Source: Acetofilamentum sp. (lineage in GTDB: Bacteria; Hydrothermota; 32-111). Taken from it: a stretch of 64,000 nucleotides of DNA. This document shows, one piece after another, positions 1-46,903 of the stretch (positions within the stretch are counted from its first letter, which is position 1; every line of letters starts with the position of its first letter). A model generated the notes under the pieces. The model was not told the DNA's origin, did not search any database, and saw only the letters and a list, made by a program, of their open reading frames with translations. Where the stretch lies: contig DYMB01000001.1 of the NCBI GenBank assembly GCA_020721805.1, positions 243,149 through 307,148 of the forward strand, written 5' to 3'. The position numbers and the translations under genes are program-made.

Positions 1-1603
1 CAAAAATGGTGGAGGTGCATTTCTTATTCCATACTTTGTTGCACTATTTGTTGCTGGAATACCACTGCTTATGATGGAAACTGCTCTAGGACAGAAATTT
101 CAGGGATCCTCTGCAAAAAGTTTTTCATCGGTATCAAAAAAATTTGAATGGCTTGGCTGGTTTGCAATATTCGTTGGAGTGATAATATGTTCATACTATG
201 CTGTTGTTCTTTCCTGGGCATTAAACTATCTTTTTTATTCTTTCAACCTTTCATGGAATACTACTGGTAGCATAAATTTTTTCTTTAACGATTTTTTAAG
301 AATTTCTCAAACCCCGTTCGATTTTTCAAAATTCAATTTTAACATATTTGCTGGACTTATTCTTATATGGTTTATATCCAGTTATGTTATTGTAAAAGGA
401 GTGAAATCTCTTGGTAAATTCAATATATTGTTATTACCCTTATCTTTTGTTATACTTCTTTTACTTTTGCTACGAGGGATAACTTTGAAAGGTTCCTTTT
501 CGGGATTGGAAAAATTCTTTACACCCGATTTTACAAAACTTCGTTCGATCAATGTCTGGCTTGAAGCTTTCTCTCAGATATTTTTTACACTATCCTTAGG
601 TTTTGGAATACTGATAGCATATGCAAGTTATAGAGATGAAAATACAGATATTGCAAACAACGCAAAGATAACCGGTTTTACAAACTCTTTGGTGGAATTT
701 CTCGCAGGTATAGCAGTTTTTTCCACAGTTGGTTTTCTTGCATTTTCCAAAAATGTTCCAATAGACTCTTTAAAACTTGGTGGTCCTGGTCTTGCTTTTG
801 TGACTTATCCTGAGGCTATATCCAATATTCCCGGCTTGCCAAATCTTTTTGGCATCATATTTTTTTTGATGCTTCTTTTCCTTGGTTTAACTTCACTTGT
901 TTCACTGATGGAGGCTGTAGTTACCGGGTTGAAGGATAAGTTCAACTTTTCAAGAAAAAAATCTGTTTTTATAATCGTAGCGGTTGATCTTTTCTTAGGG
1001 CTTTTTTATTGTTTTGGAAGTGGTTTATACTGGCTTGATATAGTAGATCACTGGATACTTTCATACGGACTTCTGGTTGTTGGACTCTTCGAAACCATAA
1101 TAGTAGGATGGATACTTGGTGCAAAGAAGTTGAGGGATTTTATAAATGAAGTTTCCGAAATAAAGATTGACAGATTTTTTGATCTCTCGATAAAATATCT
1201 TGTTCCTTTTATATTGATAATATTGATACTCTTTTCACTTTTCAACGAATTGCAAAAGCCTTATGAGGATTATCCTTTAAGTGCAAGAATATATGGAGGA
1301 TTTCTGGTTGTTATTTTTACACTTTTGGTATCTTTACTTGTGAGTAATTTTAAAAATTTTTATGATGTTTCAATATGGGGTAAATTTTATCTTTTATTCT
1401 TGATTTTTATCACATCAGTTTACTATATGATAGAAAAAACAAAAATTTTAAATGTTAAATTCAGTTTTAAATATAGCGCGCTGGTTTTCTTTTTGTTTGG
1501 ATTTATTTTACTTGTTGGGAATCTTTCATATGCTATCCATACTGCGATAAAGAATGAGAGAAAGAATAAAACGGAAGATAACACTACACCGACTACATTT
1601 TAA
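1..1603 (+). CDS. Sodium-dependent transporter, NSS/SNF (SLC6) family; 5' end truncated by the window edge
   Basis: The frame is open from nt 1. The N-terminal peptide KNGGGAFLIPYFVALFVAGIPLLMMETALGQ contains the NSS signature NGGGAFLIPY and is followed by ~11-12 hydrophobic helices. The annotated ORF at 71 is an internal Met; stop at 1601-1603. Confidence 0.8.
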   Translation, partial: KNGGGAFLIPYFVALFVAGIPLLMMETALGQKFQGSSAKSFSSVSKKFEWLGWFAIFVGVIICSYYAVVLSWALNYLFYSFNLSWNTTGSINFFFNDFLRISQTPFDFSKFNFNIFAGLILIWFISSYVIVKGVKSLGKFNILLLPLSFVILLLLLLRGITLKGSFSGLEKFFTPDFTKLRSINVWLEAFSQIFFTLSLGFGILIAYASYRDENTDIANNAKITGFTNSLVEFLAGIAVFSTVGFLAFSKNVPIDSLKLGGPGLAFVTYPEAISNIPGLPNLFGIIFFLMLLFLGLTSLVSLMEAVVTGLKDKFNFSRKKSVFIIVAVDLFLGLFYCFGSGLYWLDIVDHWILSYGLLVVGLFETIIVGWILGAKKLRDFINEVSEIKIDRFFDLSIKYLVPFILIILILFSLFNELQKPYEDYPLSARIYGGFLVVIFTLLVSLLVSNFKNFYDVSIWGKFYLLFLIFITSVYYMIEKTKILNVKFSFKYSALVFFLFGFILLVGNLSYAIHTAIKNERKNKTEDNTTPTTF

Positions 1604-1604
1604 G

Positions 1605-1685
1605 TGCCGGGGAGGGGACTTGAACCCCTATGGGAAGCCCACACGCCCCTCAAACGTGCGCGTCTGCCAGTTTCGCCACCCCGGC
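1605..1685 (-). tRNA. tRNA-Leu (anticodon GAG), type II with long variable arm
   Basis: The reverse complement folds as GCCGGGG acceptor / CCCCGGC, an E. coli Leu-like D-arm (UGGCGAAACUGGCAGACGC), anticodon stem CACGU/GCGUG with loop UUGAGGG (34-36 = GAG, G37), a GGG-CUU-CCC variable hairpin, T-arm AGGGGUUCAAGUCCCCU and discriminator A73. CCA is not encoded. Confidence 0.85.
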
Positions 1686-1689
1686 AGAA

Positions 1690-1762
<73 letters not shown>

Positions 1763-1813
1763 ATAAAAAAAAATCATACAAAAAAATTTTTAAATGTCAA
1801 TAGAAAATTTTAC

Positions 1814-1843
1814 TTGACATTATAAATCTATAGGTTCTATAAT
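1814..1843 (+). promoter_or_regulatory. Sigma70-like promoter: TTGACA, 18 nt spacer, TATAAT; -10 ends 6 nt before the ATG at 1850
   Basis: TTGACA at 1814-1819 and TATAAT at 1838-1843, both perfect hexamers. The start codon lies at 1850-1852, so the transcript would be leaderless or have a very short leader. Confidence 0.45.
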
Positions 1844-1849
1844 TTATAT

Positions 1850-4003
1850 ATGAAGGTTTTTTTAAAAATTTTACCATTTTTTCTTTTTTTGAAAATCTTT
1901 TCTTTAGATATTGGGAAAATGGACCCAACTCTTCTTTCCTATTTTTCAGAAGATTTAGGTAAAGAATTTTCTTTAATAGAGGTCAAAAGTTTACAGATAG
2001 ATTTAGAAAATTGTAAAAATGATTATAAAACTCTTTCCTACAATTTTTTTCTTGAAAATAAGGATAAGGATCTTTTACCTGTTATCTTAAAAGGTAATGT
2101 CTTAAAAATTTATCAATATGTTAGTGAGCCTTTGATAATAACTGATTCAATATTGACCGGATATGTAGATTTTATAACCCTTTCAAATATAACAGATTCT
2201 AATTTTCTGGATTACTGTGAGATTGCAAAACCTGTTTTTCAATCCTCTGATAGTGCAGCCTATTTTACAAGAATCTCACAGATGGTTAGAATGGGATATG
2301 ATGGAGAGGGTGTTAATATTTGTTTTATAGATGATGGATTCGACCCTTATTTTTTAAACAATGGTAATATCTCAAAATTTCAAATTTTATGGAACCAGAA
2401 GGGAAATAATAGTTTTCTTCCTCCGCAAGGTTTCTGGTATGGTGAAGAGGTGGATTCCACAAAGATAACTTACTACAGAATGGAGGATAGGACTGGACAT
2501 GGGACATCACTTCTTTCCATAATATCATCTGAAGGTTATTTTGTGGAAGGAATTTTAAAAAAATCTAAAATAATTGGAGTAAACACATATCCAAATACCA
2601 AAAATCTTATAGAGGGTATAAAATATCTTGTAAAAAAGGGTGAAGATTTTCAAAAACCTTTTGTTGTTTTTATGCCACTCAACTATTATTGGGGAGGGCA
2701 TAAGGGAGATGATCTGTTTGAAGATTGCTTGAAAAAACTTTTCCCACTGGAAGGTTTAAAAAGAGGTATATCGGTTCCAGCGGGAAATCTTGGTAACCTT
2801 AAAATAAATGCAACTTTAAACGAAATAGCAACAGATACATTTCAAGAAATTTTTTCAAATTCATCGGTATTGATTCTTACCGATACTTCTTATTTTCTTG
2901 ATATTGATATGATAAACGGAAACGATATCTTTTTAAGATTTTTCGTCGTGGATAATGGAGAGTTTAATATTTCAAAATGGATATCCCTAAAAGATAGTAA
3001 TGTTTTCTTTTTATATGGGCAAAACTATTTTATAGGTTTCGGTTTTAATCCAGAAAGAAAAAATTCACATTTAACTTTCCAACATGAAAATAGAGCATAT
3101 CTGGGAATACAGGTATTTAATAAAGATTTAAACGATTCTGTAGAAATGTTCATAACGAGAGGCGGAGCATTTATAAAACCTTCATATGAAAATTTTTTTG
3201 AAGGGAACTCATCTTCAACATTATGTTCTCCATCTTCAATCGAGAATGTTATCTCTTCAGGTTCATACATTTCAAGAACCAACGCTCTTATTTTTTCTTC
3301 TCAGGATACTCTTTTTAAAATATGTGGCTGGAATTCAAAAAACAAAAATAGTTTAAAACCGGATATTTTTTCTCCTGGGAAATATATATTAAGTATGAAA
3401 ATCGGAGAAAATGGAATACCTTATAAGGATAGTTCAGGCTTTTTTATGGGAACAAGTTATTCTTCAATCTTTACAGGTATAGCGCTTGTTCAACTACTTC
3501 AGGCTGATTCGAATTTAAGCGTTTATCAACTTTACCAGTTGATAAAGATCGGTGCTGATATCATTTCAGGTGATGCTTTGAATGGCTCAACATTTTCAGG
3601 TTATGGTTTTTTAAACATTTTTAGAAGTTTAAAGAGCCAATCCGTTGAAAAGTTCGAACCTCAATTTTCTGTTGAAAAAGGAAAAGATTTTATAAAAATT
3701 ATCTTGAAAAATTCTGATTATTCGATTATAGAATGTGTTAAAAAAAACTCATCCCTTAAATTTGAGAAATTCTTCAACTTTTTTGTTGACAAAAATCCTT
3801 TTATAGGGCAAAATATTTATTTGATAAAAATAAAAGATAATTCTAAAAAAATCCAGACCGTTGAATTGAGTGTTGATTTTGAAAAAGGGAAAAATAAAGA
3901 AAGAATTTTTGATATTATGGGAAGAACAGTCTTAAAAATTAAAAATAAAGGGGTTTATTTTAAAATGGATAATGGTAAAATAAAGAAAATAATAAAGTTT
4001 TGA
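1850..4003 (+). CDS. Secreted subtilisin-like (S8) peptidase with C-terminal T9SS sorting domain
   Basis: N-terminal signal peptide MKVFLKILPFFLFLKIFS. Divergent S8 triad motifs: VNICFIDDGFD (Asp), RTGHGTSLL (His), GFFMGTSYSSIFTG (Ser). The C-terminus IFDIMGRTVLKIKNKGVYFKMDNGKIKKIIKF matches a Por/T9SS C-terminal target domain. Confidence 0.6.
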   Translation: MKVFLKILPFFLFLKIFSLDIGKMDPTLLSYFSEDLGKEFSLIEVKSLQIDLENCKNDYKTLSYNFFLENKDKDLLPVILKGNVLKIYQYVSEPLIITDSILTGYVDFITLSNITDSNFLDYCEIAKPVFQSSDSAAYFTRISQMVRMGYDGEGVNICFIDDGFDPYFLNNGNISKFQILWNQKGNNSFLPPQGFWYGEEVDSTKITYYRMEDRTGHGTSLLSIISSEGYFVEGILKKSKIIGVNTYPNTKNLIEGIKYLVKKGEDFQKPFVVFMPLNYYWGGHKGDDLFEDCLKKLFPLEGLKRGISVPAGNLGNLKINATLNEIATDTFQEIFSNSSVLILTDTSYFLDIDMINGNDIFLRFFVVDNGEFNISKWISLKDSNVFFLYGQNYFIGFGFNPERKNSHLTFQHENRAYLGIQVFNKDLNDSVEMFITRGGAFIKPSYENFFEGNSSSTLCSPSSIENVISSGSYISRTNALIFSSQDTLFKICGWNSKNKNSLKPDIFSPGKYILSMKIGENGIPYKDSSGFFMGTSYSSIFTGIALVQLLQADSNLSVYQLYQLIKIGADIISGDALNGSTFSGYGFLNIFRSLKSQSVEKFEPQFSVEKGKDFIKIILKNSDYSIIECVKKNSSLKFEKFFNFFVDKNPFIGQNIYLIKIKDNSKKIQTVELSVDFEKGKNKERIFDIMGRTVLKIKNKGVYFKMDNGKIKKIIKF

Positions 4004-36924: not shown

Positions 36925-37115
36925 TTCTCCTTAAAATAAAATCCCCGCCAATACCGTGTGGATTATTTGCTTGAGCCCTTAAAATAAGGGGGGTATCGTT
37001 TAGACACTTTCACACCAATTCCCAAAAAGGGAATTTTGCTGATAGTGCCATCAGATTCCCAAAACTCAAATGTTGGTTCAGCAAATTATACCATCACGAA
37101 TACAGCAGGGATATA
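36925..37115 (-). ncRNA. ssrS: Candidate 6S RNA (SsrS), ~190 nt, GC-rich structured RNA directly downstream of zapA
   Basis: A 200-nt ORF-free interval with GC content well above the local background. The predicted 5' end AUCCCUGCUGUAUUCGUG pairs with the 3' end CACACGGUAUUGGCGGGGAU as a closing stem. An apical hairpin GGGAAUCUGAU-GGCACU-AUCAGCAAAAUUCCC and asymmetric central bubble strands are present. Synteny matches E. coli zapA-ssrS. Confidence 0.4.
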
Positions 37116-39473: not shown

Positions 39474-41414
39474 TTATAGGTTTTCATAGAAAAGTTTCAA
39501 AAACTCTTCTATACTCTTTTTTCCAACATCACCTTTACCTTTTATCCTAACGCTAACTTTATTTTCATCACTCTCTTTTTTACCTACTATAAGCATAAAA
39601 GGTATATTTTCCTCTTCACATCTTTTTATCTTATTGTTTATCTTTTCGTTTCCATCGTCGATTTTATATCTTATATTCTTTTCATAAAATATTTTACCTA
39701 TATTGTTTGCATAGTCAACAGAATTGTTTGAAATCGTTAAAATAGCTATTTGTACGGGTGAAAGCCATAATGGAAATTTGCCAGCATAATTTTCGATCAA
39801 ACCACCTATAAACCTTTCAAGTGAACCCAACAATGCTCTATGTATCATATAAACATAATGCTCTTTGTTGTCTTTATCAACAAAAGTTACATTGAACCTT
39901 CTTGGAAGGTTAAAATCGAACTGTATAGTTGGTCCCTGCCATTTTCTTCCAATTGCATCTTCAAGTTTTATATCTATTTTTGGTCCGTAGAATACAGCTT
40001 CTCCAGGCATCTCTTTAAATTCAATTCCCTTTTTAAAAAGTATATCTTTTAAACTGTTTTGGGCAAACTCCCATTCTTCTAAAGTACCAGCGTATTTATC
40101 TTTAAAATTGATATCCATCGTTGATAGTTCGACATCAAACTTCTTATAACCAAATTTTTGAATCATAAAAACTGCAAAATCGTATACTTTCTCAATTTCA
40201 TCTTTCAACTGTTGGGGTGTGCAGAATATATGGCCATCATCCTGTGTAAATCCTCTTACTCTTAACAATCCATGTAATGTGCCACTTCTTTCATACCTGT
40301 AGACAGTTCCAAGTTCAGCAAATTTAACTGGAAGATCTTTGTATGAATGTAACTTTGTCTGATAAAGAAGTATATGCAATGGACAATTCATAGGTTTTAA
40401 AACATATTCCTCATCATCTATCTTAAAAATATACATATTCTCCTTGTAAAAATCATAATGCCCAGATGTTTTCCAGAGGTTTGCTTTTGAAATATGTGGA
40501 GTTATAACAAGTTTGTAACCTCTTTTTAAATGTTCATCTTTCCAGAACCTTTCTATTATATCCCTTATGATTCCTCCATTTATGTTCCAGAAAACAAGCC
40601 CAGGACCTGATTGATCGAATATGTTGTAAATGTTTAACTTTTTGCCCAGAATTCTATGATCCCTTTTTGATGCTTCTTCTATTTTGATCAAATGGTTTTC
40701 AAGCATGCTTTTTTCTGGGAAGGATATACCATATATTCTTGTTAGCATCTCTTTCTTTTCATCCCCTCTCCAGTATGCACCAGCAGAGGAGAGTAGTTTG
40801 AAATGTTTTATATAGCCTGTTGATGGGAGATGTGGGCCTCTACATAGATCAACGAATCTATAATCGAACCTCTTTGAATAGTTTTCATAATAGGTTAAAT
40901 TTTCAGATTCTATATTCTCCACAAGTTCAACTTTAAATTTTTCACCCAGTTCTTTATACTTTTTTAAAAGTTCTTCTTTTTTTATTTCAACCCTTTTGAA
41001 TTGAATATTTTCTTGAACAAGTTTTGCCATTATATCTTCTATCTTTGCAATTTCGTTTTCTGAAAATTTGTAATCTATAAATTCAAAATCATAATAGAAT
41101 CCAGATTCTATTGAAGGTCCTATAGCAAGTTTCACATATTTATCATCACCTTTAATTTCTTTTATAAAAATTTTTACAGCCATAGCGAGAAGATGAGATG
41201 TTGAATGCCAGAAAATCTCTCTACCTTTTTGTAAATAAAAATCAACCAGTGTTATGATGGAAGAATCTTCAATCTCTCTAGAAAGATCGAATAAAAAATT
41301 ATTCTTCTCAAAAGCGAAAAAATTCTCTGCTGAAAAATCTTTTGAATCTTTTAAATAATCCAGACAGGAATATCCTTTTTTATAATCGAAATCTTTACCG
41401 TTAATTTTTATCAT
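39474..41414 (-). CDS. thrS: Threonyl-tRNA synthetase
   Basis: TGS domain (MIKINGKDFDYKKG), class II core (HRALLGSLERFIG; motif 3) and anticodon-binding domain. The ORF-track start at 41474 would overlap tRNA-Val, so the Met at 41414 is preferred. Confidence 0.9.
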   Translation of the reverse strand: MIKINGKDFDYKKGYSCLDYLKDSKDFSAENFFAFEKNNFLFDLSREIEDSSIITLVDFYLQKGREIFWHSTSHLLAMAVKIFIKEIKGDDKYVKLAIGPSIESGFYYDFEFIDYKFSENEIAKIEDIMAKLVQENIQFKRVEIKKEELLKKYKELGEKFKVELVENIESENLTYYENYSKRFDYRFVDLCRGPHLPSTGYIKHFKLLSSAGAYWRGDEKKEMLTRIYGISFPEKSMLENHLIKIEEASKRDHRILGKKLNIYNIFDQSGPGLVFWNINGGIIRDIIERFWKDEHLKRGYKLVITPHISKANLWKTSGHYDFYKENMYIFKIDDEEYVLKPMNCPLHILLYQTKLHSYKDLPVKFAELGTVYRYERSGTLHGLLRVRGFTQDDGHIFCTPQQLKDEIEKVYDFAVFMIQKFGYKKFDVELSTMDINFKDKYAGTLEEWEFAQNSLKDILFKKGIEFKEMPGEAVFYGPKIDIKLEDAIGRKWQGPTIQFDFNLPRRFNVTFVDKDNKEHYVYMIHRALLGSLERFIGGLIENYAGKFPLWLSPVQIAILTISNNSVDYANNIGKIFYEKNIRYKIDDGNEKINNKIKRCEEENIPFMLIVGKKESDENKVSVRIKGKGDVGKKSIEEFLKLFYENL

Positions 41415-41428
41415 ACAATTTATAACAT

Positions 41429-41502
41429 TGGGCGGTACTGGAGTCGAACCAGTGACCTCTTGCATGTCAAGCAAGCACTCTGACCATCTGAGCTAACCGC
41501 CC
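41429..41502 (-). tRNA. tRNA-Val (anticodon GAC)
   Basis: Reverse complement GGGCGGUUAGCUCAGAUGGUCAGAGUGCUUGCUUGACAUGCAAGAGGUCACUGGUUCGACUCCAGUACCGCCCA; anticodon loop UUGACAU. Confidence 0.9.
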
Positions 41503-41504
41503 CT

Positions 41505-41576
41505 CGTCTCCAACGGGAGTTGAACCCGTGTCGCAGCCTTGAAAGAGCTGTGTCCTAACCACTGGACGATGGAGAC
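41505..41576 (-). tRNA. tRNA-Glu (anticodon UUC)
   Basis: Reverse complement GUCUCCAUCGUCCAGUGGUUAGGACACAGCUCUUUCAAGGCUGCGACACGGGUUCAACUCCCGUUGGAGACG; anticodon loop CUUUCAA. Confidence 0.88.
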
Positions 41577-41577
41577 A

Positions 41578-42069
41578 TTATTTGTTTTTATGTGTTTTAA
41601 AATATATATTTCTAAAAACTTCGTTTTCCAGAAGAGCATCGTTTATTAAAAACCAGTTTTCAACTTCTCTGTTTGTACTTGCTATCCTCTCAGCGAGAAC
41701 CTCTGAAAGATTTAAGAAAAGTTTTGCTGCAATTTTACTGGAACCGTTTACAAGTTCTTCAATATTATCTCTTGAGATAACATAAAGATCCAGAATCGTA
41801 TTTGAAAGAACATTTGCTGACCTATATTCACCTCTTAAAATTCCCATCTCTCCAAAAAAATCACCTCTGCTTAGTGTTGCAAGATGAATTTTTTTACCTT
41901 TTCTTTCAATGAAAATTTCAACCTCACCATTTTGAATCAAAAAAAGTTCATTACCCCTATCTCCCTCTTTAAAGATAAAAACATTTGGTTGAAATCTTCT
42001 TATTTTCATAAAGGAAAGAAACCGGTCAATTTCATCTTTTTCAAAATTTGTAAAGAGCCTTGATTGCAT
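41578..42069 (-). CDS. Stand-alone cyclic-nucleotide-binding (cNMP/CAP-family) domain protein, 163 aa
   Basis: cNMP-binding beta-roll motifs IFKEGDRGNELFLIQNGEVEI and GDFFGEMGIL, with no HTH. RBS AGGAGA 5 nt upstream of the ATG. Flanked within 1-22 nt by tRNA-Glu and tRNA-Lys. Confidence 0.75.
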   Translation of the reverse strand: MQSRLFTNFEKDEIDRFLSFMKIRRFQPNVFIFKEGDRGNELFLIQNGEVEIFIERKGKKIHLATLSRGDFFGEMGILRGEYRSANVLSNTILDLYVISRDNIEELVNGSSKIAAKLFLNLSEVLAERIASTNREVENWFLINDALLENEVFRNIYFKTHKNK

Positions 42070-42091
42070 AAAAATCTCCTTAGATATAGTT

Positions 42092-42164
42092 TGAGCCGTA
42101 CTGGATTCGAACCAGTGACCCCCTGCTTAAAAGGCAGATGCTCTACCTACTGAGCTAACGGCCC
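42092..42164 (-). tRNA. tRNA-Lys (anticodon UUU)
   Basis: Reverse complement GGGCCGUUAGCUCAGUAGGUAGAGCAUCUGCCUUUUAAGCAGGGGGUCACUGGUUCGAAUCCAGUACGGCUCA; G2-U71 wobble, anticodon loop CUUUUAA. Confidence 0.88.
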
Positions 42165-42184
42165 AAAAAATTTTAGGAAAAATT

Positions 42185-42212: not shown

Positions 42213-42436
42213 TAGAAATTTTTTCATTTCATATTTTTTTCTACACCATATTATAAGGATAATATTAATAATTATAAAAAATGAAACATTATTTAAGTAT
42301 ATCTTTTTTTAAGAGTTAAGAGTTAAAACTTTTAAATAACAATTTCACCTATATTTCTTATAAAAATTTTTTGACAAAGATATGTTGATTTTTTCGCTAC
42401 TTAGAAAAATTAAAAGTTTTTTTTGAAAAAAATCTC

Positions 42437-42464
42437 TTGACAAAAATAAAAAAAAGAATATATT
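42437..42464 (+). promoter_or_regulatory. Sigma70-like promoter (TTGACA, 16 nt, TATATT) driving a short transcript
   Basis: TTGACA at 42437-42442 and TATATT at 42459-42464. A strong terminator lies ~60 nt downstream. Confidence 0.4.
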
Positions 42465-42470
42465 GTTCTA

Positions 42471-42531
42471 AATACCAATCTCATATTCCCTCCCTAACCG
42501 GTTGGCCTCGCTTCCAACCGGGTTTTTTTTT
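42471..42531 (+). ncRNA. Predicted ~60-nt small RNA with C-rich (UUCCCUCCCU) single-stranded region ending in an intrinsic terminator
   Basis: An ORF-free transcript bounded by a promoter and the terminator CCGGUUGG-CCUCGCUU-CCAACCGG + U9 (42498-42531). The CCUCCC motif is complementary to Shine-Dalgarno GGAGG. Confidence 0.35.
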
Positions 42532-42572
42532 ATGGTGAGATATGATCGTAATAAACTTATAAGTTCTATACT

Positions 42573-42600
42573 TGACAACTAATGAAATATTGTTATAATA
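42573..42600 (+). promoter_or_regulatory. Sigma70 consensus promoter (TTGACA, 16 nt, TATAAT) for the yceD-rpmF-plsX-fab operon
   Basis: TTGACA at 42573-42578 and TATAAT at 42595-42600. The ORF-track start at 42582 would lie inside the promoter, so the Met at 42609 is preferred. Confidence 0.5.
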
Positions 42601-42608
42601 AAAAACTT

Positions 42609-43049
42609 ATGATAGAGATAAATGTATTATCTTTACCTGTTGGAATTTCAGAACAGAAGTTTCAATGGGTAATAAGAAAAGATGAATATGATTTTTTTAA
42701 TGAGGATGTTTACATAAATGGATTTTTTCATATAAACAATATTCATGGCAGACAGATAGAATTTAATGGAAAAATAGAGTTTGAAATTCAACTTGTCTGC
42801 GATAGGTGTTTGAAAAAGTTTAAAAAAAAAATTGAGGAGAATGTCATTTTTATATTAAAAAAAGATTATATAGGAGATGATATCGATATTATAAGTTTTA
42901 ACGATTTTTATTGCAATATAACTGATTTTGTAAAGGATCTGGTTATAACATCACTACCAATTAAGGTTCTTTGTGATGAAAACTGTAAAGGAATCTGTCC
43001 TGGATGTGGTGTTAACCTGAATGAAGAAAAGTGTAAATGTAATCTTTAG
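42609..43049 (+). CDS. yceD: YceD/DUF177 family protein (23S rRNA accumulation protein)
   Basis: C-terminal CDRC...C..C..C..C Cys cluster. Conserved position immediately upstream of rpmF-plsX. Confidence 0.7.
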   Translation: MIEINVLSLPVGISEQKFQWVIRKDEYDFFNEDVYINGFFHINNIHGRQIEFNGKIEFEIQLVCDRCLKKFKKKIEENVIFILKKDYIGDDIDIISFNDFYCNITDFVKDLVITSLPIKVLCDENCKGICPGCGVNLNEEKCKCNL

Positions 43050-45254: not shown

Positions 45255-46160
45255 GTGAAAAATGTTTTAATGTTCCCAGGTCAGGGCTCTCAGTATGTCG
45301 GTATGGCTTCCGATCTGTATGAATACGATGAGGTGAAAAGACTTTTTGACCAAACTTCTCAGATAATCAATGATGATATAGCAAAAATAATGTTTTCAGG
45401 TCCAGATGAACTTCTTACCGAGTCAAAAAACGCTCAGGTGGCAATACTTTTACATTCCTTTTCAGTTTTTTCTCTTATGAAGGATAGAATAAAATTTGAT
45501 GCTGTATGTGGACATTCTCTTGGTGAATATACAGCTTTACTGGTATCTGGGGTTTTTGATTTTAAAAGTGCCGTGGAACTTGTAAGAAAGAGAGGCGAAC
45601 TGATGAGTTATGCTGGTTTGAAAGCAAAGGGCAGTATGGCTGCCGTTATAGGTCTTTCACCTTTGATAATTGAAGATGTTCTTTCTAAAATAGAAGGGGT
45701 TGTTATAGCCAATTATAATGGTGATCAACAAACCGTTATTTCTGGAACAGTTGAGGGTATTCAAAACGCAACTGAAATACTTTCCAAAAAAGGAGCAAGA
45801 AGGGTTGTAAAACTTAATGTCTCAGGTGCCTTTCATTCTCCTCTTATGGATTATGCGTATAGAGAGTTTGCCGATTTTATAGATAGATATGAATTCAATA
45901 AACCGAAATCATATGTCTTAATGAATGTTTCAGCCAATTTTGAAAATGATCCCACTAAAATCAGAGAACTGTTGAAAAAACAGATAATAAGTCCGGTAAA
46001 ATGGACACAGATAATGAGAAATCTTATAGATAACGGTTATGGTAATTTTTACGAAATGGGACCATCTAAAGTTTTATCTGGTATTTTGAAAAAGATAGAT
46101 TTAGAAAAAAGATCTTCTTCTTTTGAAAAGAAGGATGAAATATTAAATTTTAAGGAGTGA
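45255..46160 (+). CDS. fabD: Malonyl CoA-ACP transacylase
   Basis: FPGQGSQ and GHSLGEYTAL (active Ser) motifs. Probable GTG start. Confidence 0.9.
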   Translation: MKNVLMFPGQGSQYVGMASDLYEYDEVKRLFDQTSQIINDDIAKIMFSGPDELLTESKNAQVAILLHSFSVFSLMKDRIKFDAVCGHSLGEYTALLVSGVFDFKSAVELVRKRGELMSYAGLKAKGSMAAVIGLSPLIIEDVLSKIEGVVIANYNGDQQTVISGTVEGIQNATEILSKKGARRVVKLNVSGAFHSPLMDYAYREFADFIDRYEFNKPKSYVLMNVSANFENDPTKIRELLKKQIISPVKWTQIMRNLIDNGYGNFYEMGPSKVLSGILKKIDLEKRSSSFEKKDEILNFKE

Positions 46161-46162
46161 AT

Positions 46163-46903
46163 ATGGAATTTAAAGGTAAAAATGTTATAGTTACAGGTGG
46201 AATCAGAGGTATAGGTAGAAGCATAGCTTTAAATTTTGCAAAGGAAGGTGCCGATATTATAATTTTTGATATGATTGAAGAAGGGAAGGATGAGTTGAAA
46301 GGGCTGATTGAAGATTACGGGGTAAGATTTGAATATTTTAAAGTTGATGTATCCAATTACTCTGAAGTGGAAAAAGTTGTAGATCTATTGATAGAAAAAT
46401 ATCAAAAAATAGATTTTCTTATAAACAATGCTGGTATAACGAAAGATAATCTTTTGATAAGTATGCAGGAAACCGATTGGGATAAAGTTATTTCTGTCAA
46501 TTTAAAAGGGACTTTCAACTGTTCAAAAAATGTTGTAAAATATATGATAAAAAAAAGATACGGTGCTATAGTAAATATTTCTTCTGTAATAGGTATAATG
46601 GGAAACAAAGGACAAGCGAATTATGCAGCGAGTAAGGCTGGAATAATCGGATTTACAAAATCACTAGCCAAAGAAGTTGGATTGAGAAATATAAGAGTGA
46701 ACGCGATAGCCCCTGGTTTTATAGAAACTGATATGACTAAAGTTCTACCTCAGGAAGTTATAAATGAATATTCCAAACTGATACCGATGGGAAGAATGGG
46801 AAAACCGGATGATGTTGCCAACCTTTGTTTATTTCTTTGTTCGGAAAGATCAAATTATGTTACCGGTCAGGTTATTCACTGTGATGGCGGTATGTTAATG
46901 TAA
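46163..46903 (+). CDS. fabG: 3-oxoacyl-ACP reductase
   Basis: SDR: TGGIRGIG, NNAG, YAASKAG. RBS AAGGAG 5 nt upstream of the ATG at 46163. Confidence 0.9.
   Translation: MEFKGKNVIVTGGIRGIGRSIALNFAKEGADIIIFDMIEEGKDELKGLIEDYGVRFEYFKVDVSNYSEVEKVVDLLIEKYQKIDFLINNAGITKDNLLISMQETDWDKVISVNLKGTFNCSKNVVKYMIKKRYGAIVNISSVIGIMGNKGQANYAASKAGIIGFTKSLAKEVGLRNIRVNAIAPGFIETDMTKVLPQEVINEYSKLIPMGRMGKPDDVANLCLFLCSERSNYVTGQVIHCDGGMLM

Follow-up and report, generated by a model that had tools for sequence, protein, structure and literature searches.

Small RNAs (sRNAs) directed against the translation initiation regions of mRNAs are known from several Firmicutes. LhrC represses translation by pairing with Shine-Dalgarno (SD) regions, and it shares this anti-initiation-region design with RsaE/RoxS, an RNA of ~100 nt that carries several C-rich regions distributed over two or three hairpin loops. 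The csRNAs, which range from 87 to 151 nt in length, are driven by CiaR-box promoters. In Streptococcus, these multi-copy csRNAs hold an anti-SD and an anti-AUG sequence in an unpaired region located between two stem-loops (PMC3091779).

Here we analyse a short promoter-to-terminator unit on the plus strand of a 64,000-nt stretch of DNA (the window), together with its counterparts in genomes and metagenome contigs of candidate division WOR-3/TA06. Bacteria of this group are known only from metagenomes, and the unit represents a cleanly delimited sRNA candidate under very strong selection. A full-text search, itself uninformative in this respect, revealed no described small RNAs in WOR-3/TA06, and a search for the sequence of this one gave no relevant paper. 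We consider it fairly probable that the unit constitutes a gene in its own right, confined to one WOR-3/TA06 clade and encoding a trans-acting regulatory RNA of ~60 nt whose 5' arm may mirror the initiation region of selected mRNAs. The total invariance of the RNA is its main unexplained feature.

Anatomy of the promoter-to-terminator unit

The unit is located between a divergent tRNA-Lys gene (42091-42165, minus strand), which has a 12/12 promoter of its own, and the genes yceD-rpmF-plsX-fabH-fabD. Its promoter, TTGACA-16-TATATT (42437-42464), agrees with the consensus at 11 of 12 positions and has a 16-nt spacer. The -35 hexamer TTGACA (42437-42442, plus strand) is the same in all homologs, where it occupies positions 98-103 of a ten-sequence alignment (A1). 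The -10 hexamer TATATT (42459-42464, plus strand) is retained in nine of the ten aligned homologs, the remaining one, L016, having TATAAT in a shifted arrangement (homologous and matching loci are denoted by L numbers throughout). Ten promoter matches of at least 11/12 are present in the window, compared with 4.1 +/- 2.2 in first-order Markov simulations, and because most of them precede genes or tRNAs, consensus sigma-70 promoters are in use in the source organism. A lone 11/12 match is nevertheless weak evidence against chance, and it is the comparative evidence presented below that is decisive.

We infer that transcription begins at an A at 42470-42472, 6-8 nt past the -10 hexamer, and ends within the U-run, which would yield a transcript of ~59-62 nt (42470-42531, plus strand). 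The 5' arm of this RNA, AAAUACCAAUCUCAUAUUCCCUCCCUAA (42470-42497, plus strand), is a putative seed and is unpaired in both the minimum-energy and the centroid folds. It contains an anti-start-codon CAU (42482-42484) and an anti-SD sequence, CCCUCCCU (42488-42495), both on the plus strand and both predicted to be unpaired. The second of these forms part of the C-rich motif UUCCCUCCCU (42486-42495), which in the DNA (TTCCCTCCCT, 42486-42495) is the sole exact copy within the 64-kb window. Read directly, the reverse complement of the arm is UUAGGGAGGGAAUAUGAGA, that is, an SD followed by a spacer and AUG.

The arm is followed by a terminator hairpin (42498-42521, plus strand), in which CCGGTTGG (42498-42505) and CCAACCGG (42514-42521) form an 8-bp stem with six G-C pairs around the 8-nt loop CCTCGCTT (42506-42513). 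In the RNA this loop, CCUCGCUU, carries a second small C-rich motif (CCUC). The U-tract of the intrinsic terminator (42523-42531, plus strand) is preceded by G42522 and consists of nine T in the window and of eight or nine in the homologs; between 41000 and 44000 the hairpin at 42498-42521 is the only terminator-like site. Folding of the 61-nt RNA left the first 27 nt unpaired and gave a hairpin of -14.1 kcal/mol that accounts for 85% of the ensemble (z = -2.7 relative to shuffled sequences), with no antiterminator alternative predicted. On this model the 5' arm is predicted to be single-stranded. The promoter, intrinsic terminator and C-rich motif that made up the original prediction are thus all present, the motif being misplaced in that description only in that it had been assigned to a loop and actually sits in the single-stranded 5' region.

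Further upstream, 66 nt before the -35 hexamer, lies a conserved TTGACAAA element (42371-42378, plus strand; A1 positions 32-39) that is invariant in all ten aligned homologs. Possible readings of it are a second promoter, an operator or another site for a regulator, and what is left of a tandem copy. In most homologs, GATAYT is found ~19 nt downstream of TTGACAAA. Separately, we observed that in the group of loci around L006 the bases that come after the element (GAAATACCGATACT) resemble the 5' end of the sRNA (AAATACCAATCTC).

Conservation of the unit among WOR-3/TA06 relatives

Homologous loci in WOR-3/TA06 genomes and metagenome contigs were located principally through the proteins encoded by neighbouring genes, which makes the loci obtained in this way unbiased as to the RNA sequence. 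A search with PlsX returned five loci in WOR-3/TA06 metagenome-assembled genomes at 80-82% identity, and an identical 61-nt block was present in L001-L004, in the first two of these at the position it has in the window. A search with the cNMP-binding protein, whose orthologues ranged from 100% down to 51% identity, revealed the identical 61-nt block in L006-L009 and L028-L031 and part of it in L033, where the contig ends after nucleotide 17 of the unit and those 17 nt are identical. An exact 19-mer scan of JGI metagenomes, which is biased to copies identical in the 19-mer and leaves room for variants, gave five true homologs, all of them invariant. It added L014, L015, L016 and L018, the last being one and the same record as L028 (Ga0172375_10032705), while L020 corresponds to the L003 contig. 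In the four loci added, the 40 nt outside the 19-mer pattern are identical as well.

Across some seven to nine distinct lineage/context groups, the block at 42472-42530 is 100% identical, and every true homolog carries the same ATACCAATCTCATATTCCCTCCCTAACCGGTTGGCCTCGCTTCCAACCGGG followed by T8-9. In A1, TTGACA(AAA) and TATA(T)T are invariant on either side of a variable 16-nt spacer, and identity extends from ~6 nt past the -10 hexamer to the end of the T-run, with flanks that are about half identical or less. Such a pattern, with hexamers fixed, the spacer free and the edges of the block sharp, therefore identifies a real gene and not a chance arrangement. Conservation among relatives had been set beforehand as a test of the original prediction, which came through it with an invariant block, and the concern that its hexamers were chance matches in AT-rich DNA is countered by their persistence beside a diverged spacer.

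The degree of this conservation becomes apparent when the window is compared with L006. Between these two loci, ThrS is 64% and the cNMP-binding protein 61% identical at the protein level, tRNA-Lys, tRNA-Glu and tRNA-Val are 89%, 95% and 87% identical, respectively, and the sRNA is identical at 59 of 59 positions (100%). Some of the differences in tRNA-Lys are compensatory and fall in the anticodon stem. If the sRNA diverged like the tRNAs, by ~10% on average, all 59 positions would stay free of differences with a probability of ~0.002 for the window-L006 pair alone. Judged by these identities, selection on the sRNA is stronger than on the neighbouring tRNAs, and the alignment as a whole gives evidence that purifying selection acts very strongly on all transcribed bases. 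As no base varies among the homologs, the seed is indistinguishable from the remaining RNA, and no covariation was obtainable for the hairpin.

The known distribution of the unit is narrow, because it is absent at the orthologous tRNA-Lys/cNMP locus in L010-L012, L023-L027 and L032 (51-58% identity of the cNMP-binding protein). Neither extra nor diverged copies were found in the window or at any homologous locus examined, viral contigs contained no copy, and a search with the Pyr_excise glycosylase encoded next to the unit in L016 gave only matches of <=58% identity in unrelated organisms and no new homolog.

An exact complement of the arm, TTAGGGAGGGAATATGAGA, was seen as the SD and start of a gene at L013 (1734-1752), L017 (73-91, minus strand) and L019 (9673-9691, minus strand). 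These are chance matches of the 19-mer scan from other, unrelated organisms, and they show the sRNA arm to be a faithful anti-initiation-region sequence. On L017, a contig with 23-27% GC, TTAGGGAGGGAATATGAGA leads a lipoprotein-like ORF.

Proposed function, total invariance and changing neighbours

The unit has the general attributes of an sRNA gene, namely a promoter and terminator of its own and a conservation that is independent of flanking genes. We propose a trans-acting RNA that occludes initiation regions, because the unpaired 5' half combines an anti-AUG (CAU) with an anti-SD sequence (CCCUCCCU). A sigma-70-type promoter, TTGACA-16-TATATT, would start transcription at an A at ~42470-42472, the intrinsic terminator would end it in the U-run at 42523-42531, and the product would consist of a 27-nt single-stranded 5' arm and the terminator hairpin. 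Within the arm, CAU-AUU-CCCUCCCU is the antisense image of an initiation region composed of GGGAGGG, a short spacer and AUG. From this likeness we infer both the mechanism and the kind of target: the arm would pair with the SD and start codon of selected G-rich mRNAs and block 30S binding, resulting in translational repression, possibly accompanied by mRNA decay.

The source organism uses SD-led genes, and its usual SD is AAGGAG(G). With this sequence CCCUCCCU shares only the 5 bp of GGAGG:CCUCC, and it is a much better match to (A)GGGAGGG(A). Since AAGGAG(G) sites pair over 5 bp only, the sRNA probably singles out sites of the (A)GGGAGGG type and does not block SDs in general. The complementarity of the C-rich motif to GGAGG, as originally noted, is real, but pairing over so few positions weakens the accompanying expectation of many AAGGAGG targets.

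When 33 start regions of the window were scanned, the best interaction was predicted for fabG at 46163 with UUAAGGAGUGAAUAUGGAAUU (-17.6 kcal/mol, z = -2.6), a value as expected for the best of 33. L001-L005 and L014 keep the complementarity, an A-to-G change among them leaving a G-U pair in place, and the start region itself, UUAAGGAGUGA(A/G)UAUGGA, is conserved (46140-46170 in the window and ~6900-6930 in L001-L004). The gene belongs to the plsX-fab cluster and is 3.6 kb away from that of the sRNA, on its downstream side. As a putative target, fabG is only a lead. A GGGAGGG at codons 8-10 of plsX in L001-L005 was considered as a target as well and rejected, as it is not conserved in the window.

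In base-pairing sRNAs it is usually the seed alone that is fixed, which is why invariance over 59 nt is unusual; it is a hint that other or further constraints act on the RNA, and one has to ask what keeps all 59 bases fixed. One answer, which we regard as unlikely, is a real small RNA of housekeeping grade that is constrained throughout by protein or ribosome binding and not mainly by mRNA pairing. It might, for instance, act as a decoy for an RNA-binding protein of the poly-C or KH type, or imitate or compete for the 16S 3' end. Such a role would fit an RNA with 59 of 59 positions invariant where the tRNAs differ by 5-13% and ThrS by 36%, and with a terminator loop and stem that never vary, as a constraint on the seed alone would not predict. 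However, no partner protein gene travels with the unit, whose neighbours change freely, its shape is the simplest that an sRNA can have, a single-stranded arm plus terminator, and no Rfam housekeeping family matches. We give a slightly smaller chance still to a core, near-essential RNA of the WOR-3 clade, constrained at each of its nucleotides and more tightly than the neighbouring tRNAs, for example a global translation governor that would titrate G-rich initiation regions or a partner, either the ribosome or an RNA-binding protein; if true, an uncultivated phylum would have a new class of housekeeping-type small RNA. To remain identical across family-level divergence is in itself unusual for a bacterial sRNA and makes the RNA a useful clade marker.

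Around the invariant transcribed block, four distinct downstream contexts were observed. In the window, L001, L002 and L014, the unit is followed by yceD. In L003 and L004, a 2.8-kb cassette of two genes, encoding a family-2 glycosyltransferase and, on the minus strand, a membrane protein, separates the terminator from yceD; in both loci (470-3300 in each) it begins exactly after the T-run of the sRNA, and it is missing from L014 (9630-9700), whose upstream sequence is that of L004. In the L006 group, tRNA-Lys and the sRNA are separated by a gene for a 160-aa membrane protein, and a convergent mutS comes next, whereas in L016 the unit lies among unrelated genes and is followed by a convergent Pyr_excise glycosylase gene. 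With the region invariant, the hexamers kept while the spacer varies and the downstream gene exchanged, the earlier description of a stand-alone, non-coding unit of ~60 nt is borne out, and the boundaries and autonomy of the gene are evident from the aligned loci.

The borders of the sRNA gene look like insertion/deletion hot spots. Cassettes are gained or lost exactly at its 3' edge (L004 vs L014) and at its 5' side (L006 group), which recalls the integration of islands beside small RNA and tRNA genes and could suggest that the block is a DNA-level element, such as a recombination/attachment or protein-binding site, with a conservation unrelated to transcription. We find this very improbable, given that the inserted cassettes contain no integrase or recombinase and that a transcript is the simpler explanation for an invariant 59-nt block whose limits are set exactly by a conserved promoter and a terminator.

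The exchange of neighbours also bears on the idea of a cis-acting 5' leader or attenuator controlling read-through into yceD-rpmF-plsX, for which the argument is the position of the unit in the window, 80 nt upstream of yceD and on the same strand. Its probability is close to nil in our estimation: a conserved 12/12 promoter with an extended -10 serves yceD itself, the 2.8-kb cassette parts the unit from yceD in L003 and L004, the convergent orientation of the next gene in the L006 group and L016 leaves nothing to attenuate, and the fold offers no antiterminator. No constant, co-oriented and promoterless downstream gene was found, and because the unit is preserved whichever gene follows it, it is neither leader nor attenuator.

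The flanking genes have features of their own. The promoter of yceD (42572-42611) reads TTGACA-16-TGTTATAAT, a perfect 12/12 match with an extended -10 that is conserved among the loci. The conserved ATG of yceD at 42609, only 9 nt past the -10, is not preceded by an SD, which gives the yceD-rpmF mRNA the look of a leaderless or nearly leaderless transcript; the start called mechanically for this ORF, at 42582, falls inside the promoter and is not kept in L001-L004. The glycosyltransferase gene that follows the sRNA in L003 and L004 has a similar layout, TATAAT-N7-ATG. On the other side of the unit, a conserved block (39474-42165 in the window, minus strand, and 2908-6489 in L006) comprises tRNA-Lys, the cNMP-binding-domain protein, which is a stand-alone protein of 163 aa, tRNA-Glu, tRNA-Val, thrS, infC, rpmI and rplT. 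The long ORF call for thrS (start at 41474) overlaps tRNA-Val, so the true start is further in.

The interval had been described as devoid of ORFs, which is not strictly the case, as mechanical ORFs overlap it, but is correct in substance: neither the ORF list nor A1 reveals a conserved ORF on either strand of the unit. On the plus strand, we rejected an ORF at 42437-42538, which starts in the promoter, and another at 42502-42582, which extends into unconserved DNA, both of them without an SD. A minus-strand ORF at 42484-42410 (MRLVF...) was rejected because its frame is not kept among homologs. Judged by reading frames, the unit is non-coding. It is as hard to credit as the leader reading that this last ORF, short and hydrophobic and with a textbook SD and ATG at its start (GGGAGGG-N4-ATG), is the functional element and the plus-strand RNA its cis-antisense antitoxin (a type I toxin-antitoxin or SymR-like pair), as its conservation ends after codon 5, the adjoining stretch that separates the block from the -10 measures 5, 6 or 7 nt depending on the homolog and so breaks the frame, no conserved minus-strand promoter lies downstream of the T-run, the conserved hexamer pattern fits a promoter and not codons, and no conserved small ORF is found on the opposite strand. 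The leader and toxin-antitoxin readings are essentially excluded.

Comparison with described small RNAs

The reading we favour, an independent gene for a trans-acting regulatory RNA, can be set beside the known families. Across the whole window, Rfam 15 contains no family that matches the sRNA unit at the gathering threshold; elsewhere in the window, a 6S RNA (RF00013) was recognised at 36938-37114 on the minus strand with 70.6 bits, over its gathering score. A 541-nt search around the unit gave six sub-threshold matches at E <= 10, four of them to sRNA genes. The best was LhrC (RF00616), at 27.4 bits against a gathering score of 110 (E = 0.05 in the 541-nt search), followed among the sRNAs by ncr982 of Bacillus (RF02454; 18.8 bits, cut-off 50), MmgR/suhB (alpha-r8, RF00519; 16.8 bits, cut-off 41) and CyaR (14.7 bits, cut-off 47). 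The other two were a PyrR binding site over the unit (21 bits vs 54) and a truncated 39-nt match to ARRPOF, located elsewhere in the searched stretch and not on the unit. The alignments of LhrC and ncr982 to the unit pair a single-stranded C-rich motif with the terminator layout. Taken together, these sub-threshold matches indicate convergent design and no family membership.

The likeness to LhrC consists of a UCCC-type single-stranded motif just upstream of an ACCGG-stemmed terminator, with a C-rich terminator loop in both RNAs. LhrC, however, has a 5' hairpin and a length of ~110 nt, whereas the WOR-3 RNA lacks this hairpin and measures ~60 nt, and LhrC is a five-copy family of Listeria, in contrast to the single copy per contig found here in an unrelated phylum. 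With ncr982, the RNA shares the arrangement of a UUCCUCC-type single-stranded sequence directly before the terminator; for this family and for MmgR/alpha-r8, scores under the cut-off point to convergent design, not homology.

The resemblance to RsaE/RoxS (RF01820) of the Bacillales, to which the RNA had originally been likened, is one of concept only, in that unpaired C-rich motifs face G-rich SD regions. No Rfam match to RsaE/RoxS was obtained at E <= 10, and the WOR-3 RNA, with one predicted hairpin and one main motif, is not a member of that family.

In the arrangement of its elements, the RNA also recalls the streptococcal csRNAs: an anti-SD sequence and a CAU are adjacent and unpaired, in the WOR-3 RNA as CAU-AUU-CCCUCCCU, an arrangement that in both implies occlusion of the initiation region (PMC3091779). 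It differs from them in its single hairpin, its TTGACA -35 and its single copy. No csRNA family of Rfam matched at E <= 10, and the stem-loops, CiaR-driven promoter and sequence similarity that characterise csRNAs were not found.

By this comparison, the unit represents a family of sRNAs that is new but functionally of a known type, present in an uncultivated phylum and unusually conserved. This suggests that the combined anti-SD and anti-AUG design known from the Firmicutes, in LhrC, RsaE/RoxS and the csRNAs, arose independently in a distant bacterial lineage.
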